DNA of 64,000 nt, taken from NCBI RefSeq assembly GCF_964213995.1, contig NW_027590159.1, positions 124,001 to 188,000 of the forward strand, read 5' to 3'. How positions within the stretch are numbered: position 1 is the stretch's first letter; the number at the start of each line of letters is the position of its first letter. Of this stretch, positions 5,680 to 31,195 are shown piece after piece. The notes under the pieces were generated by a model. It searched no databases. It was not told the origin of the DNA and saw only the letters and a program-made list of their open reading frames with translations. The translations under genes were made by a program, and so were the position numbers. The DNA comes from Mustelus asterias. Taxonomy: Eukaryota.

Positions 5680-6830
5680 AGGAAGATTTGAGCTGTATCT
5701 AACCCCGTGCTGTACCTGTCCTGGGTGTGTTTGATGTGCACAATGTGGAGGCAGCTTTTCCTTTAATCTAGCACCATGCTGTGTCTGTCATTGGATTATA
5801 TGATGGGGACAGTGTATAGGGAGCTTCACTCTGTATCTAAACCTGTGCTGTACCTGTCCTGGGAGTGTTTGATGGGGATAGTGTAGAGGGAGCTTTACTC
5901 TGTATCTAACCCTGTGCTGTATATGTCCTGGGAGTGTTTGATGGGGGACAGTGTAGAGGGAGCTTCACTCTGTATCTAAACACGTGCTGTACCTGTCCTG
6001 GGTGTGTTTGATGGGGGACAGTGTAGAGGGAGCTTTGCTCTGTATCTAACCCCGTGCTGTATCTCTCCTGGAAGTGTTTTATGGGGACTGTGGAGAGGGA
6101 GCTTTACTCTGTATCGAACCCCGTGCTGTACCTGTCCTGGGAGTGTTTGATGGGGGACAGTATTGAACATAGAACATAGAACATAGAACATTACAGCGCA
6201 GAACAGGCCCTTCGGCCCACGATGTTGCACCGACCCGTAAAAAAAAAAACACTGTGACCCTCCAACCTAAACCAATTTCTTTTCGTCCATGAATCTATCT
6301 ACGGCTCTCTTAAACGCCCCCAAACTAGGCGCATTTACAACTGATGCTGGCAGGGCATTCCAATCCCTCACCACTCTCTGGGTAAAGAACCCACCCCTGA
6401 CATCGGAGATATAGATATAGAGGGAGCTTTACTCTGTATCTAACCCCGTGCTGTACCTGTCCTGGGAGTGTTTGATGGGGACAGTGTATAGGGAGCTTCA
6501 CTCTATCTAAACACGTGCTGAACCTGTCCTGGGTGTGTTTGATGGGGGACAGTGTAGAGGGAGTTTTGCTCTGTATCTAACCCCATGCTGTATCTCTCCT
6601 GGAAGTGTTTTATGGGGATAGTGGAGAGGGAGCTTTACTCTGTATCGAACCCCGTGCTGTCCCTGTCCTGCGAGTGTTTGATGGAGACAGTGTCGAGGGA
6701 CCTTTACTCTGTATTGAACCCCGTGCTGTATTTTTCCTGGGAGTGTTTAATGGGGACAGTGTCCAGGGAGCTATACTCTGTACCTAACCCTGTGCTGTAC
6801 CTGTCCTGGGAGTGTTTGATGGGGACAGGA
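5680..6830. repeat. ~69-bp satellite block with a CR1 3'-end insertion at ~6166-6405
   Basis: Same unit, interrupted by a (aacatag)n-tailed LINE end on the minus strand. Confidence 0.9.
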
Positions 6831-15664: not shown

Positions 15665-17212
<1,548 letters not shown>

Positions 17213-18099
17213 TCAGTTCAAGCCTCATCCACACACACAACACACACGTAGTTTCACCCTGCTGTGAACTGTGATGTTTTTTCAGGCTGTGTAACTGGTT
17301 AAAGATCTTTCCACATGCAGTTCACTGGAACACTCTCACTCGGGTGTGTGTTTGTCTCGATGCTTTTCCAGTCACACTGATGTTTAATTTCTTTGCCCAC
17401 AGGCAGAACAGACAAATATTTCTCTTTCCAAATTCAAAGACCGATGATATTCAGCTCTGAAGGAACTGAATGACTTTGCCAGTTATGATGTTCGGTTTGA
17501 GTTTTCTGTCTGCCATTCTTTCACTTCCAATATCCTGTAAAAACAGTTCAGAAAAGTCATCACTGTCAGAACAGGATAGAAACTCTGAACAGACAATTCT
17601 AGTTTGTCAGGAACATTTTTTCCTCTCTTGTTCCCCCAAATCTGTAAATCCCCGTCCCACCCACTCTCTCTCCCTCCTCCCTGGGCTGAAATCCAAACCC
17701 ATCTCACCATCTCTTTCCTCCACTCCCAGTTTTCTCCCTCCCTCTCCTCTGTCTGGGTTCAGTTCTCCAGCTCCTGTCTGCAGACTGACAATAAAACCAA
17801 TGGGTCTTACTGGGGGTGTTGGGGCCTCCAGCGGGTGTTTGTGAATCCTCCCCGCCCACCTCCCAGGGTTTCCTTCCTTCCCAGAGATCAGAGTCCTCAT
17901 TGATTTGAGGCCAAAGTGTAACCTCTTATTTATTGTCCCCCTCCCCCATCCTCTGATGTGAACCATTCTCCAGTGGCTGAGCCAGGATGGGGCCGTTAAC
18001 CTGGGCCTGTTCCCGGGAGGGAGGGAGGGAGAAGCCCCGCAGCTGCAAACCAGGGAGCTGACAATGATTCTGAAGGGTTTGCGGATCCACAAAGTGTTT

Positions 18100-23380: not shown

Positions 23381-23887
23381 ATGGAGAAACCATGGAAATG
23401 TGCGGACTGTGGGAAGGGATACGGAGCCCCTTCAGAGCTGGAAGTTCATCGGCGCAGCCACACTGGGGAGAAGCCATTCACCTGCTCTCAGTGTGAGAAG
23501 GGATTCAGTCAGTTATCCAACCTGCAGAGACACCAGCGAGTTCACACTGGGGAGAGACTGTTCACCTGCTCTCAGTGTGGGAAGGGATTCACTAATTTAT
23601 CCACCCTGCGTAGACACCAGCGAGTTCACACTGGGGAGAGGCCGTTCACCTGCTCTCAGTGTGGGAAGGGGTTCAGTCAATTATCTGACCTGCAGATACA
23701 CCAGCGAGTTCACACTGGGGAGAGGCCGTTCACCTGCTCTCAGTGTGGGAAGGGATTCAAAGTTTCATCCCGGCTGCTGAGACACCAGCGAGTTCACACT
23801 GGGGAGAGACCGTTCAGCTGCTCTGTGTGTGAGAAGATATTCAGTCTTTCATCCCATCTGTTGAGACACCAAAAAGTTCACGAGTGA
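23381..23887 (+). CDS. C2H2 (Kruppel-type) zinc-finger protein, 6 fingers, 168 aa, no KRAB/SCAN domain seen
   Basis: Intact [16 protein letters not shown]...HQKVHE with HTGE(K/R)PF linkers; exon acceptor ttttacag|g at 23030. Confidence 0.9.
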
Positions 23888-24139
23888 TTCCAGGGGTTGG
23901 ATTCTGCTGTTATTGTTTCTGCTCTCAATTACATCCAGGACTGCATTTTGTTCATTCTCACAGTTGGTCAATGGGGAGGGTCAGAGGGTTTCTTTCTGCT
24001 GGACTGGCCGGTCTCATGACTTTGTCTCCAGTGGGCTGATGCTCTTTGAGTCTTTGTTGCGAATACCTGGTTTCAGATTTCACACGGATCACAGAGTGAC
24101 AGGGTGTTAGGAAGTTCAGAGTCACTATTTCTGTTTGAA

Positions 24140-24430: not shown

Positions 24431-25199
24431 CTGACATTGACAATAAAGAACAAACTAACAGAATATGTTAATACCTGAAATCAAATGGGAATGTTTAATT
24501 TCTGTTTTAAAGAAATCATGAATATATTGTCCCGTACAATAAAGGGATTTGAATAACTCAGCTTGGGTGCAGTTGAATGAAATGTATCAATCTCGTATCC
24601 ACCCACAGTCTAGAGGAAGTGTGGAATGTGTAGCTGGAAATCCCTCCCTAACAGCACTGTGGGTGTACGTACACCTCAGGCATTGTAGCAGTTCAGGAAG
24701 GCAGTGTTGGGGTTGACCATGGCCGAGGCAGCTACATACAGCCACATATTCTGTTATAATTGAAGGACTGTAGATTGAATGTGAGGCATTATGGGACTGG
24801 ACTATCTTGACCACATTCCTGTGACTGCTCAGTTTCTGCAATCACGGACCATTAAAGCTGCTAAGCAGGGCTCCGAAAGAGGACCTGGTGAGAATATTTA
24901 CTCAGAATGAGTTAGAATTAAACTTATTCCAGGACCGGCTGGTGTTCAGTGGCTGAGATTCCCGAATCTGTTAAAAAGGGGGTCTGATCAATCAACAAAC
25001 AGTGGTCGGTAGTTAGTTAAGAAGCGTTCTCATGCATTATTTAAATTATTTTATCATAAATTTGAGATCAGAACTGTGAGGGACTTGTAACCCAATAGTT
25101 GTTGAATTGACGGTAAACTCCAAGTAGCACTGGACTGAAAAGGGGGTCTGACCAAGAAGTGAAGTGATCTCAGGCACTGTTTAAATTACATCATCATTG

Positions 25200-25647
25200 G
25201 CCAACTTCCCCTTTGTGACGTCACAGTGGAGCCATCCTTGAATCAGCCAATAGGAATCACTCTGCTCCGCGGTGACGTCTCCGGGTTCCAGTGCGCAGGC
25301 CCGGGCGCGCGGACCCGGGAGCCCCGCCCCCACCCATTGTTCCCCTCCCCCTACACCACATCGAGCCAAGGTTTCCAGGCAACCAGCTGGCGGCTCCGGC
25401 CAGAGCGAGAAGCTGCTCGGTGATCTCCCCCTCCCCTCGGCCCAGGACTGCGCATGTCCAAGGGAGGGGGAAGCTGAGAATTGCAGGGCAGATCCCACCC
25501 CCTGACCTTCTGAGGTGTTGGTTAATAGGAAGAGTTGGAGGACCGGAAGGACTCTGGTCCTCCAGCTGATCAGAGCGCGGGCTTGTGACAATGCAGATTG
25601 GGCTTCAGACAGACTGAAACCTCCTCCTGTCTCCAACCTCTGTGAGT
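25200..25647 (+). promoter_or_regulatory. CpG-rich promoter and probable non-coding first exon of ZNF-gene type
   Basis: TGACGTCA at ~25216, CCAAT at ~25247, GC box, tgcgcatg at ~25449; ends in a tct|gtgagt donor that is repeated at 29533. No downstream ZNF coding exon in the window. Confidence 0.5.
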
Positions 25648-27514
25648 GGGAAAGATTGGATTGTCCAGCCAGTCCACCATATTGGCCGTTCGCTTTGCGT
25701 GTTGGCCAGTATAGTGTGCTCCAGGCAGGGGGCGGGCAGAGGATAAGGAGTTCAAGGCGGGCTTAATGCGCGCCTTGCGGTGAGCTTTTGGAAATGTGGC
25801 CGCTGGGAGGAACGCCTTGGTCGGCGTGAAGTTTCTGTTTCAAGTGCTTGGGTTCGTGACTTGTGCAAGAACTTTTTGTTTCGGCTGGGGCTTGTTGAAT
25901 GCTGCTCTCGCTGGGATTCCTGTGCCTTGAAAGGCGTGGCCCGGGTGGATGCAGTCTCGGAAGACCCAAGCCAGGGAGGAGCCATTTGGGAACAATGGTT
26001 TCGGAAGGTTCAGCCGCGGAAGGTGTGACCCCAGACGGTGCAGCCCCAGTGGGTGTGATTTTGGAAGTTCTGGCCCGGAGTGGTGGACTTTGGAGGACTG
26101 TAGTTGAGCGTTGTCGACTTCGGACGGTGGAATGTTGATGGGCGAAGCTCTGGAAGGCGATGCCTCCGAAATGTTTCACAATTGTATGGTTGTTCGTGGA
26201 TTGTTTGTTATTGTAATATGTGGTTTTCATGTTATGATAGTTGGTGGTTTGTTCCGGCCCCCGTCTATTTTCTTGCGTTATTTGTGGCCTGGGGGGCATC
26301 CCCCCCTTGACAACGTCACCCCCGGGGGGTGTGACATCCACTTGGGGAAAGTTCTGGGTGGTGAAGCCCCGGACATAGTAACACCAGAGGGATTTTTATT
26401 CTCCGGGAGAAAAATTGGGAAGGCAGGCCCGAACTGAGTACCCTGGAGAGACTCTCCCACCGCCCCGGCTGAAATTCCGGAAGGCAGTCCGGATTGAGTA
26501 GGCGGGGTGGTTTCCCCATTTCCCCCCTCCGGCTGAACATCCGTAAGGTGTAACCCCCGGATATGAGTACCACTGGAGGGTTGCATCCCCCGGCAGGTGG
26601 ACAAATCCAGGGGATGGTGCCCTTCTGCTTCAGTGTTTATTTTTTTTTGTTGTGTACAGTTGTAGTGTTGTTAATGTTTGTAGATTTGTAGATTATGATT
26701 TGTAAATGGAGGTGTATTTTGAGGGCAATGCCCTGGAAAACTGTAATTGACGATGAACCCTTCCGAAATGGAAGGTAGTAATTGATAAATGGATGGTGTT
26801 AGCCATCGGTAATGTATTTTTCATGGATTGTTTGTTATTGTAATATGTGGTTATCATGTTATGGTAGTTGGTGGTTTGTTCTGGCCCCCGTCTATTTTCT
26901 TGCGTTATTTGTGGCCTGGGGGGCATCCCCCCCTGGATAAAGTCACCCCCGGGGGGTGTGACATCCACTTGGGGAAAGTTCTGGGTGGTGAAGCCCCGGA
27001 CATAGTAACACCAGAGGGATTTTTATTCTCCGGGAGAAAAATTGGGAAGGCAGGCCCGAACTGAGTACCCTGGAGAGACTCTCCCACCGCCCCGGCTGAA
27101 ATTCCGGAAGGGATTCCGGATTGAGTAGGCGGGGTGGTTTCCCCCATTTCCCCCCTCCGGCTGAACATCCGTAAGGTGTAACCCCCGGATATGAGTACCA
27201 CTGGAGGGTTGCATCCCCCGGCAGGTGGACAAACCCAGGGGACGGTGCCCTTATGCTTCAGTGTTTATTTTTTGTTGTGTACAGTTGTAGTGTTGTGTTA
27301 ATGTTTGTAGATTTGTAGATTATGATTTGTAAATGGAGGTGTATTTTGAGGGCAATGCCCTGGAAAACTGTAATTGATGATGAACCCTTCCGAAATGGAA
27401 GGTAGTAATTGATAAATGGATGGCGTTAGCCATTGGTAATGTATTTTTTCACATTTGTTCTTTGTGTATTTGTAATTGTTTTGTATTAACGTATTTGTAA
27501 TAAACAAAAAGAAA
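25648..27514 (+). mobile_element. 5'-truncated polyA-ended element (possibly L1/Tx1 clade) with a tandemly duplicated ~627-bp structured 3' region
   Basis: AATAAA at 27499 followed by caaaaagaaa; repeats at ~26197-26824 and ~26824-27453; degraded upstream frame only weakly like a Tx1 ORF2 C-terminus. Confidence 0.5.
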
Positions 27515-27531
27515 CCAACATCAGAGAGGTT

Positions 27532-27604
27532 GTTTCTGTAGTGAAGTGGTTGTCACATTTGCCAGACACGCGAAAGGTCCCCGGGTCAGAACCGGGCAGG
27601 AATG
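27532..27604 (+). pseudogene. tRNA-Val pseudogene (anticodon reads GAC)
   Basis: Aligns to vertebrate tRNA-Val (GTTTCCGTAGTGTAGTGG..GCGAAAGGTCCCCGG) with B-box and acceptor-stem mutations. Confidence 0.85.
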
Positions 27605-27628
27605 TTAATTTGGTCATTCCAGCATCTG

Positions 27629-29524
27629 AAAGTGGGAAGGGGGAGGAAGGTGAGCTGTTGCCTGCCTGCCTGCTGTCATTGGCCTCGGGGTGGGCGTAGC
27701 ACTCCCTTGATTACTATGGAGGCATCGCCAGCGTCGCCGGTGGCAGAGCCTTCTCGGCCCACCTATGCGGGCGTGGCGGCAACCAGAGCCCCCGCCGCTC
27801 CCAAGGCCCTGCCACCTTTTTCGTTGCTCACGCGGCAGCTCGGGGTTAAGGGCTACGCCCACCCCGGCATGTCTATCGAGGCCTGTGTCAAGGCAATGGC
27901 TGGGGTTGTCGGCCCCTGAGCCATTGTCGCGGCCTCGAAGATGTACGGCCGGGCCGTATTCTTTTTGAAGGCCGAGCGGGCGGTCCACCTCGCCCTGGAG
28001 AGGGGGCTCACGGTGGGCGGGACGTTCCTGGCGGTGGACCCATTGGAGGCCACCGCCCATAAGATCATCATCTCGAAAGTCCCGCCCTTTCAACCCGGTG
28101 AGCTCCTCCTCCCCCACATCCATCCACTGGGGGAGGTCAGGTCCGGGGTGGTGCCGATCCCGCTTGACCTTTGGGACCCCTCCCCCCGCCATGTCTACTC
28201 CTTTTTGTCCATTTCTCCATTTGTCTGCCTGACCCGGGAGGAGGTCCTGGAGGGAGGGTTTAGTATCCGTTCCACCCAGCCGATTACAACCCGGAGTTCT
28301 TTTTCAGTATGCCGGGGGACTGGGGCGACACCCCAATGTTCGTGTCCCCGTGCGGCGGTGGCGAGGAAATGGTCCACTCGTCCTCTCCGTCCCGGCCTTG
28401 GACGCTGGACATCCCTGACCTTAATCCGGAGGTTGTACCAGACCTGGGGGGTGTCCAAGCGTCTGGGGCGGAGCGGGGGACTGAGTCGCCGCTGCACGCG
28501 GGCCTGCAAACCGGGGAAGGTGAGCCCGGGGGGAACCCCTCCTCCACCGATCCTGGGGGTGGGATCGGGGAGGGGTTGGGGCGAGTTGGTGACTCCGTGC
28601 CGCCCGCCGTACGTCCTGCGGCAGGGGACTCGGAGTCGAGGGGCGACCGCCCTGAGGAGGTCAGCGGCTCGGTGGAGGGCACGGGGACACTTTTGGAGTC
28701 TGCCCAGAGCGAGGCGGGGTCTCCCTCGTGCCTCCCACCGAGTCATCCCTCCTGCGGATTCACTGTCTGGAACACGGTCGCCTCGCGACGCTGCTCCCTA
28801 ACCCCCACCCCACCCCACCCCACCCCCCACACCCCCCCCAAACCCCCCCACACCACCCGCTCCCCAAACCCCTCCCACCCACCCCAAACCCCTCCCACCC
28901 CACCCCCACACCCCCACCCCCACACCCACACCCACACCCCCACCCCACAACCATAGGATTCACTGGTTCACGGGCTCCGAAGACTGCCCTTTCTGTGGCC
29001 TTGTGGAGTCCGTGGACCATGTCTATGTTTTGTGTCTTAGGCTGCACTCCCTTTTTGTTTTCCTAAAGAACCTTTTGTTGATGTTTTGCTTGCACTTCAG
29101 TCCCTCGCTCCTGATCTACGGACACCTGGTGCGGAGAGGGAAGGGGAGGGATGGCGACCTCCTCGTGAACCTGCTCCTGGGCCTGGTGAAACGCGCCATT
29201 TACCGGTCCAGGCAGCGGGCGATCGAGGGGGCCGTCCATCCTGACTGTCTGCCCCTCTACCACGGCTTTGTTCGCGGCCAGGTGTCCCTGGAGAGGGAGC
29301 ATGCGGTGTCCACGGGCGAGGTTGACGCTTTCCGCGCCCGTTGGGCACCGCAGGGGTTGGGGTGCGTTATCGACCCTAATAATCACATTTTAATTTGTTG
29401 TCTTTAAGTTTGCTTTGAACTTTGATTTCTGTTCGGGCTGTTCCCCCTCCTTTTGGGGAGCTGCCCCTTTTACTTTGTCCTGACTTAATTTGGCTTTGTT
29501 TATTTGGTTTGACCTAAAAAGAGG
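27629..29524 (+). mobile_element. Tx1-clade non-LTR retrotransposon, internally deleted (ORF1 N-terminus plus ORF2 C-terminus)
   Basis: ORF1 from ATG 27716 (LTRQLGVK..SIEACV..IVAASKMYGRAVFFL..ISKVPPF..RHVYSF) with an in-frame stop at 27917; ORF2 end CPFCGLVESVDHVYVLC (CCHC) ~28985-29407; T-rich UTR and taaaaagag tail. Confidence 0.85.
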
Positions 29525-29869
29525 CCAACATCTGTGAGTAAAAGACTTTCTTTTCTCTCCCTTTCCATTTCTTTTCTCATTCTGGGGGAAATTGGGGATT
29601 TGCAGCAACTGAAGGGAAAGGAAGTGAATCCAGGGAGGCTGCAGACTCTGAAAAGGTTGGCCCAGGTCTGTCTGTCTCTCTTTTTTAAAGACATTGACAT
29701 CCTTTGCTCCCTCAGTTTGACTCATTTATTTGTCTGGATGAAGCATAGTCTCTTTGCTAATGTTCACAATTAAAGGGATGTTTTCTCCAGGAGATGGCTG
29801 ACATTTAAGGGCACACTAAATTAATATTGTGCACATTCATGACCTGGACACGTCAGACTTATGATCAAT

Positions 29870-31195
29870 AGGATCATAGAATCCTGCAGTGCAGAAGGAG
29901 GCCTTTCGGCCCATCGAATCTGCAGTGACCACAATTTCATGGAGATTTACAGCATGGAAACAGGCCCTTTGGCCCAACTTGTAAATGCCACCCTTTTTTT
30001 AAAACCCCTAAGCTAGTCCCAATTGCCTGCATTTGGCCCACATCCCTCTGTACCCAACGTATCCATGTTCCAATCTAAGTGCTTTTTAAAAGACAGAATT
30101 GTACCCGCCTCTACTACTACCTCTGGCAGCTTATTCCAGACACTCATTATCCTCTGTGTGAAAAAATTGCCCCTCTGGACACTTTTGTACCACTCCCCTC
30201 TCACCTTAAACCTATGCCCTCCAGTTTTAGACTTCCCTACCTTTGGGAAAAGATATTGACTATCCAGCTGAGCTATGCCCCTCATTATTTTATAGACTTC
30301 TATAAGATCACCCCTCAACCTTCTATGCTCCAGAGAAAAAAGTTCCAGTCTATCCAGCCTTTCCTTATAACTCAAACCATCAAGTCCGGGTAGCATCCCT
30401 GTAAATCTTTTCTGCACTATTTCTAGTTTAATAATATCTTTTCTATAATAGGATGACCAGAACTGTACACAGTATTCCAAATGTGACCGTACCAATGTCT
30501 TGTACAACTTCAACAAGACGTCCTACTTCCTGTATTCAATGTTCTGACCGACGAAACCAAGCATGCCGAATGCCTTCTTCACCACTGTCCATCTTGTGAC
30601 CTCACTTTCAAGGAGCTATGAACATGTACCTCTCGATCTCTTTGTTCTGTAACTCTCCTCAACGCCCTACCATTAACTGAGTAAGTGCTACCCTGATTCA
30701 TAGAACATACAACATTACAGCGCAGTACAGGCCCTTCGGCCTTCGATGTTGCGCCGACCAGTGAAACCAATCTAAAACCCATCTAACCGACACTATTCCA
30801 ATATCATCCATATGTTTATCCAATGACCATTTAAATGCCCTTAATGTTGGCAAGTCCACTCCTGCTGCAGGCAGGGCATTCCACGCCCTTACTACCCTCT
30901 GAGTGAAGAATCTACCTCTGACATCTGTCCTATATCTATCACCCCTCAATTTAAAGCTATGTCCCCTCATGCTCGCTATCACCATCTGAGGAAAAAGGCT
31001 CTCACTATCCACCCTATCTCATCCTCTGATCATCTTGTGCGCCTCTATTAAGTCACCTCTTAACCTTCTTCTCTCTAACGAAAACATCCTCAAGTCTCTC
31101 AGATTCCCTCATAAAACCTTCCCACCATACCAGACAACATCCGAGTAAATCTCCTCTGCACCCTTTCCAATGCTTCCACATCCTTCCTATAATGC
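29870..31195 (-). mobile_element. Nested CR1-type LINE 3' fragments
   Basis: ORFs 30013-30516 ([18 protein letters not shown]) and 30698-31012. Confidence 0.9.

Follow-up and report, generated by a model that had tools for sequence, protein, structure and literature searches.

How did two retroelements and a tRNA-like sequence come to lie end to end at one splice donor? This question is raised by a 64,000-nt stretch of the Mustelus asterias genome (assembly GCF_964213995.1, contig NW_027590159.1, positions 124,001–188,000, forward strand), hereafter the window, in which a non-coding element (element A), a tRNA-Val-like segment and an internally deleted long interspersed element (LINE) of the Tx1 clade (element B) follow the first exon of a multicopy C2H2 zinc-finger (ZNF) gene family. 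An initial annotation, made from the letters of the window, had described a 3.9-kb composite insertion with a target-like word at every junction, produced either by serial insertion at the ZNF donor or from one read-through transcript. On comparison with paralogous loci in the 3.68 Gb of genome searched, the stack likely formed in two retrotransposition steps at the ZNF exon-1 donor, the first by the tRNA-headed Tx1 element and the second, later, by element A.

The target site and its paralogs

The four words of the initial annotation were present at the element junctions, namely CCAACCTCTGTGAGT (25633–25647), CCAACATCAGAGAG (27515–27528), CCAGCATCTG (27619–27628) and CCAACATCTGTGAGT (29525–29539). 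With one mismatch allowed, the 15-mer occurred twice in the window (0.03 expected), a number reached in none of 100 shuffles. The 10-mer alone was at chance level window-wide (7 found and 6.8 expected), and its four plus-strand matches all fell exactly at element junctions. Genome-wide, CCAACATCWGWGAG was found 1069 times, compared with 46 times for the reversed control.

The sequence upstream of the stack (25100–25641, plus strand) is homologous to the promoter and non-coding exon 1 of the ZNF family, as judged from paralog identity and spliced contigs, and the exon ends in ...CCAACCTCT. A first look yielded 1244 candidate exon-1 homologues genome-wide, the top 30 loci being 92–100% identical. 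Among these 30 best paralogs, 2 were empty, 24 carried the tRNA and Tx1 without A, 3 others carried A, and the last was the window itself. Alignment of the exon paralogs thereby recovered the empty site: at the two empty loci (L010 and L028), the exon and target are followed directly by sequence equivalent to that after position 29539. The original host target, CCAACATCT/GTGAGT (29525–29539, plus strand), runs into intron 1 of the window exactly as it does at these loci, and the start of this intron (29540–29827, plus strand) shares 90% identity with what follows the empty site.

In contigs from three of four sequencing runs (two studies), the exon end ...CAACATCT of an empty paralog was joined to the exon-2 acceptor, the joints at L253 leading from 5700/5701 to 6180–6192, with the exon end between, in runs X1, X4 and X6; the RNA status of the runs is not on record, and the result applies to the family level rather than to the window copy. 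Because the contigs join the exon end to the exon-2 acceptor, the target straddles the splice donor. The description of the site as a first-exon donor therefore held for the gene family, in which many paralogs carry C2H2 exons after the intron. For this copy, neither the 34 kb left in the window nor the 10 kb beyond it yielded a downstream ZNF coding exon on the plus strand, and the window exon may thus be orphaned. Many ZNF genes are arranged as head-to-head pairs (L253, L188 and L194), and both donors of a pair serve as landing sites.

The Tx1 element and its inherited tRNA-Val head

Element B (27629–29524, plus strand) consists of a remnant of the 5' untranslated region (UTR), pieces of open reading frame 1 (ORF1) from 27716, the C-terminus of ORF2 from 28943, and a 3' end in ...GACCTAAAAAGAGG. 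Mapping on full-length family copies of ~7 kb revealed internal deletions, by which the window copy has lost the endonuclease and reverse transcriptase (RT) domains; a Pfam search of seven window frames gave no matches. The family copy at L266 retains an open ORF2 frame of 1304 codons with PF03372 (the apurinic/apyrimidinic-type, APE, endonuclease) and PF00078 (RT) above cut-off. This ORF2 was 48% identical to YTX2_XENLA (Xenopus Tx1L) over 1297 aa and 61% identical in the RT region; in the protein search, a ray protein gave the highest identity (75%). A zinc-knuckle match in ORF1 (zf-CCHC, E = 0.0046) was weaker than the curated cut-off. By its ORF2 domain content and protein identity rather than by a clade tree, B can be assigned to the Tx1-clade non-LTR (long terminal repeat) retrotransposons.

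B was not strictly sequence-specific in its insertion. Among 30 Tx1 3' ends, picked by likeness to the window copy, 14 abutted the ZNF target and 16 lay elsewhere, 13 of the latter before GCA or CCA; the preference of B for GCA/CCA is thus a loose one, and the ZNF target stands out as a strong hotspot. Independent landings on the target included copies truncated to 15–30 nt and tandems. An exact-match check recovered a target-site duplication (TSD) in 3 of the 10 rows listed; in others, a mismatched duplication or none was seen by eye. The smallest insertion seen at the donor was a Tx1 tail fragment of 15 nt with a target copy on either side (L196, L193 and L266; C160, C71 and C108).

The head of the element (27529–27618, plus strand) derives from a pre-tRNA-Val and comprises a GTT leader, a tRNA-like part (27532–27604) and a trailer. 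The tRNA-like part has a GAC anticodon and 20 of 20 stem pairs, and is identical to a genomic tRNA-Val at 61 of 73 positions; the trailer resembles the trailer of the genomic tRNA-Val copies L401 and L416, and the leader likewise resembles the leader of genomic tRNA-Val copies. ARAGORN called a tRNA-Val(GAC) at 27531–27605. An Rfam scan of 25000–30000 returned just two chance-level matches, with no tRNA match at E ≤ 1, and the window tRNA is therefore regarded as a degenerate copy. Its T-loop (GTCAGAA) and GAC anticodon do not agree with a functional tRNA gene.

The initial annotation had treated this segment as a bystander gene or third insertion. A whole tRNA-Val-like segment was instead found at 30 of 40 Tx1 5' ends, the other 10 having a partial one or none; the list came from a 5'UTR-repeat query that was independent of the tRNA, except for four ends obtained with a tRNA-containing query. 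Tx1 copies with this head occurred at several insertion points, and three tRNA-headed units, 81–93% identical, lie in tandem on C23. The segment is shown by this comparison of copies to be an inherited 5' head of the Tx1 family. Behind it, 27619–27628 (plus strand) is the remnant of a second captured exon end and donor, whose GTGAGT has been deleted in this lineage along with ~70–100 nt behind it; in an alignment of other heads, GTGAGT was exact in 16 of 20 and GT was present in all 20. The two inner junction words, correctly located by the initial annotation, thus both belong to the Tx1 head rather than to separate insertion events.

Position 34 of the anticodon suggests how the head was acquired. 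G34 was present in 32 of 34 heads, compared with 4 of the first 100 listed of 133 genomic tRNA-Val cores, 3 of these 4 being heads themselves. According to the available part of PMC4446420, pre-tRNA-Val(AAC) is edited to inosine at position 34 (I34), which is read as G, and capture through RNA is therefore likely. Only G34 was used as a fingerprint, because the divergence of the loops is matched by that of the flank. A further chimera (L399; G000:C17, ~47026700–47026800), in which a tRNA-Val(CAC) with its trailer is fused to the last 12 nt of a Tx1 tail within a 15-bp TSD, is an independent fusion of pre-tRNA and Tx1 and shows that such a capture has taken place again. Arrays of tRNA-Val genes, many of them degenerate, share contigs with the ZNF clusters (L192 and L403–L420), and one Tx1 fragment sits inside a tRNA-Val copy.

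Element A

Element A (25648–27514, plus strand) is 1.87 kb long and non-coding; self-BLAST resolved it into a head (25648–26189), two units of ~627 bp that are 95% alike, and an A-rich tail. No matches were obtained with Pfam on four frames of A or with 120 Tx1-like proteins searched against it by tblastn. Approximately 232 exact A tails were found, and 123 tails directly preceded the ZNF target (controls, 0), the patterns for the two counts differing slightly upstream. Copies form head-to-tail arrays in divergent paralogs, with at least 12 consecutive tails on C140. Dispersed copies were 5'-truncated, and at least 10 of the 30 listed had their own TSD of 10–16 bp, the mark left by target-primed reverse transcription (TPRT). 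A is a young, non-coding retroposon, and these features show it to be non-autonomous.

Searching A by blastn against full-length B gave no match, and none with other non-A sequence was seen among 40 of 57 low-identity matches listed. A related Tx1 family with an A-like AAAAGAAA tail was seen as 3' fragments only. Related Tx1 families (L381:180–375, L327 and L380) were ~82% identical at the 3' end, with tails GGTATCAAAAGAAA and GGTATCGAAAGAGC; those in L381 and L380 precede TCCCT sites and are a candidate helper of A. A second hotspot of A is the CCAAT region of an LTR-like repeat (L378–L383; C3, C13, C16, C19 and C26), where A copies form arrays and have as their leader ~210 bp of that repeat and a ZNF exon end.

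Order of insertion

The junction upstream of A identifies the source of the first word. The exon end and GT donor at 25622–25647 (plus strand; GT at 25642–25643) are partly or wholly the 5' leader of A, as seen from the junction of a sister copy on C71 that differs at 3 positions in 1867 bp (99.8% identical) and lies in a different host. The sister shares the private C at 25638, whereas its own 3' target has A there; its host has 26 differing sites over 222 bases upstream, and identity with the window stops at 25622. Full-length dispersed A copies at non-ZNF sites also carry the ZNF exon end. Because of this shared base and these dispersed copies, the upstream word was imported with A, a finding that suggests a host promoter as the start of transcription. 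The 14/15 match between the outer words, initially read as the TSD of one event, is accordingly not such a duplication, the mismatch existing because A and the Tx1 each arrive with an exon-end copy of their own.

The second word, CCAACATCAGAGAG at 27515–27528 (plus strand), is a target variant that forms the leader of this Tx1 lineage, lies directly after the exon in A-less paralogs, and was reused as the landing site of A. The closest paralog, on C469, carries the tRNA and B without A, and its identity to the window is 98.0% in the upstream flank (1.63 kb) and 97.7% in the downstream flank (1.49 kb). A was added last, to a segmentally duplicated unit. A single composite insertion is contradicted by the existence of empty, tRNA-Tx1-only and A-only paralogs. 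The alternative of serial insertion at a multicopy ZNF donor was supported by the three paralog states and by the tails of A or Tx1, which in many divergent paralogs end directly at one and the same base.

With the target, the empty and intermediate states, the element-borne leaders and the inherited head as observed fixed points, we infer the following course between them. The Tx1 endonuclease would nick just before CCAACATCT/GTGAGT, with copying by TPRT. The Tx1 RNA likely starts in the host ZNF promoter and would thus contain its own exon-end copy, the tRNA head and the second captured donor, the head having probably been captured once, by a template switch onto inosine-edited pre-tRNA-Val(AAC). 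The gene unit was then amplified by segmental duplication and its Tx1 lost internal parts, as the shared flanks show, and A would have inserted very recently at the regenerated target, to judge from the paralogs. The exon end imported by A, with its intact GT donor, would leave the whole stack intronic.

Three points weigh against parts of this course. The promoter-borrowing step is argued from genomic copies and not from RNA of the element itself; no RNA match to the exon–A junction was listed, and the joints in contigs of four runs on an A-array locus, dominated by ZNF repeats, carried no information on splicing. The A arrays could also grow by unequal crossing-over. Finally, the off-target flanks of A were TCC and CCA, with GCA in 0 of 39 compared with 14 of 26 for the Tx1 copies sampled; since the flanks of A and B differ, the helper of A may be another Tx1 family or subfamily.

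Apparent conservation of the tRNA fold

What the head does is a separate question. One possible reading, rather less likely than not, is that an inosine-edited pre-tRNA, once captured, has become a module of structural RNA in this autonomous vertebrate LINE, the RNA polymerase III (Pol III) box being lost and the cloverleaf kept. Together with the captured donor, this module would allow the element to be transcribed as part of the pre-mRNA of the ZNF genes that it parasitizes and then to be processed out of it, and passengers, A among them, would stack at the regenerated donor. Substitutions were analyzed in 34 of 47 head rows, after 10 partial heads and 3 duplicates had been dropped. T54 of the B box had been replaced in all 34 heads, A58 had changed in 22 of 34, and position 8 or 14 was altered in several. 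A stem pair was broken by 3 of 47 shared changes and 12 of 36 private changes (Fisher p = 0.003), in rows that are related by descent. Divergence among 20 heads was 0.10 in stems, 0.31 in loops and 0.26 in the downstream flank. Distances in the leader and trailer were left out, as there were non-homologous rows among them. In simulations of 11 heads, 8 gave P < 0.03 under both mutation models. Judging by these patterns, selection appears to act on the stems as RNA structure and not as a Pol III promoter, and our best guess is that the fold would serve in processing or splicing of a host–element co-transcript.

Rather doubtful, in our estimate, is the reading in which the history of the stack is as proposed and the tRNA head is a functionless passenger of an early master chimera, few lineages and G–U-preserving transitions mimicking conservation. 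It is opposed by the shared–private contrast and by the heads with 13–19 substitutions, which mostly keep 19–20 of 20 pairs, whereas degenerate tRNA-Val copies of the arrays with 10–18 changes and at most one gap keep just 12–18; five such heads tested (13–19 changes, 19–20 pairs) had simulated P values of 0.0004–0.003, or 0.003–0.016 with CpG weighting. Several observations nevertheless favor it and weigh against selection on the fold. The rows are related by descent; 2 of the 11 simulated heads were clearly not significant and a third was borderline; and the stems were not more conserved than ORF fourfold sites (0.11 and 0.07–0.13, respectively; 22 copies), being conserved just relative to their neighbourhood. 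Head and ORF1 distances agreed weakly (Mantel rho 0.19; 211 of 5000 permutations). The window copy folded no better than its shuffles (z = −0.31), and minimum-free-energy folding did not single out the cloverleaf. The 10 of 40 5' ends without a whole tRNA include a copy with an open ORF2 and a second copy with the same deletion, and the head is therefore not needed for mobility.

Two narrower ideas were set aside. Release by RNase P at tRNA position 1 was not favored, given that integrated copies extend upstream with lineage-specific leaders. Hypermutation of the loops by reverse transcription over modified bases (positions 9, 26, 34 and 58 vary often) was rejected since the flank diverges as fast.

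Other origins of the stack and head

Against the two-step history stands the improbable reading that A came from an A-bearing paralog through gene conversion or ectopic recombination instead of by new retrotransposition. In its favor are hundreds of paralogs with 92–98% identity, arrays that alternate A variants, and several A–tRNA–Tx1 loci with upstream exons of other subfamilies. Both flanks of the window nevertheless best match the A-less paralog on C469, the end of sister identity at 25622 would need a conversion tract ending ~26 nt outside A, and the dispersed truncated copies with TSDs mark A as mobile by TPRT.

A Pol III internal promoter for Tx1, as in the head of a short interspersed element (SINE), would suit the place of the tRNA at the 5' end, behind a leader of 3 nt, and SINEs are known to originate from tRNA–LINE fusions (available part of PMC5786205). 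We nevertheless consider this role highly improbable from the sequence of the heads, in which the changes at T54, at A58 and, in several, at position 8 or 14 leave the A and B boxes not intact and from which copies reach upstream of the tRNA into exon sequence. Runs of at least four T, which terminate Pol III, also follow the tRNA in the 5'UTR of most heads.

That one read-through transcript placed A, the tRNA gene and Tx1 into an empty site at once is hardly credible, even though the A–tRNA–Tx1 order recurs at 8 loci including the window, because these loci differ in hosts and in A copy number (1 to 6), the same deleted tRNA–Tx1 lacks A in 24 of 30 paralogs, the paralog closest on both flanks has no A, and A is 99.8% identical to its sister compared with ~95–97% for the Tx1 part and its paralogs.

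Relation to known retrotransposons

The comparisons in this section draw on the available parts of the papers cited. Reported safe-haven targets of non-LTR elements comprise rRNA, tRNA and small nuclear RNA (snRNA) genes, spliced-leader exons, transposons, microsatellites and telomeric repeats (PMC4640811, PMC4494074). Xenopus Tx1L resembles family B in its ORF2 with APE endonuclease and RT, its target preference and duplications of ~15 bp; it targets the Tx1D DNA transposon (PMC4494074), whereas B prefers exon 1 of the protein-coding ZNF genes, inserts also widely before GCA/CCA and, unlike Tx1L, has a tRNA-derived head. The crocodilian Tx1-Mar and SINEU-1/2/3 likewise comprise Tx1 LINEs headed by small RNAs (U1/U2), non-autonomous passengers that share a target, and tandem insertions sandwiching a TSD, and for them, too, transcription from flanking promoters has been proposed (PMC4494074). 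In contrast, the head here is a pre-tRNA-Val and not an snRNA, the target is a splice donor and not Mariner, and, unlike in SINEU, no small-RNA head was detected in A by the Rfam scan.

CRE, SLACS and CZAR are, besides NeSL, further spliced-leader-specific elements. NeSL likewise inserts at a multicopy non-coding exon, but it is treated alongside the Utopia lineage, whose endonuclease is restriction-like, and its target is an RNA gene (PMC4640811), whereas B is an APE element at protein-coding exons transcribed by RNA polymerase II (Pol II). In human tRNA/LINE-1 chimeras, tRNA is also fused to a LINE, at 21 loci with mostly antisense tRNA halves (PMC13174262); by contrast, the pre-tRNA found here is whole and in sense orientation, and subfamilies of an autonomous family have inherited it. 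RTE-1_DAn, compared by mention only, is another LINE with a tRNA-like sequence (PMC5786205). The nimtRNAs, tRNA-like sequences in introns by which splicing is enhanced, also keep a cloverleaf despite base changes, in Pol II pre-mRNA near splice sites; they differ in their mitochondrial origin and host function (PMC7722341), and serve as an analogy only.

A literature search of titles and abstract starts, with Repbase and most subscription journals outside it, found no ZNF-donor target or tRNA-headed Tx1; supplements of the cited papers may list more Tx1 targets, and the available part of PMC3747384 held nothing further on sharks. Targeting here is of the Tx1/SINEU type with a differing target and head, and, being a splice donor in a protein-coding multigene family, the target represents an additional class. 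At such a target, the element would restore the donor on which it lands and borrow a Pol II promoter. The fold inherited whole in a LINE leader, the likely inosine fingerprint and the second, independent capture in this genome make two questions testable, namely how LINEs gain small-RNA heads and which role a tRNA-like fold has within a Pol II transcript.

Other features of the window

Downstream of the stack, ARAGORN called four more tRNA genes between 33844 and 45444 (Glu-CTC, Gln-CTG, Leu-AAG and Glu-TTC). Upstream, a ZNF coding exon lies on the plus strand at 23399–23893; the part of the window ahead of it yielded no exon-1 homologue. The minus strand has an intron/exon-2 remnant at 17101–17688.

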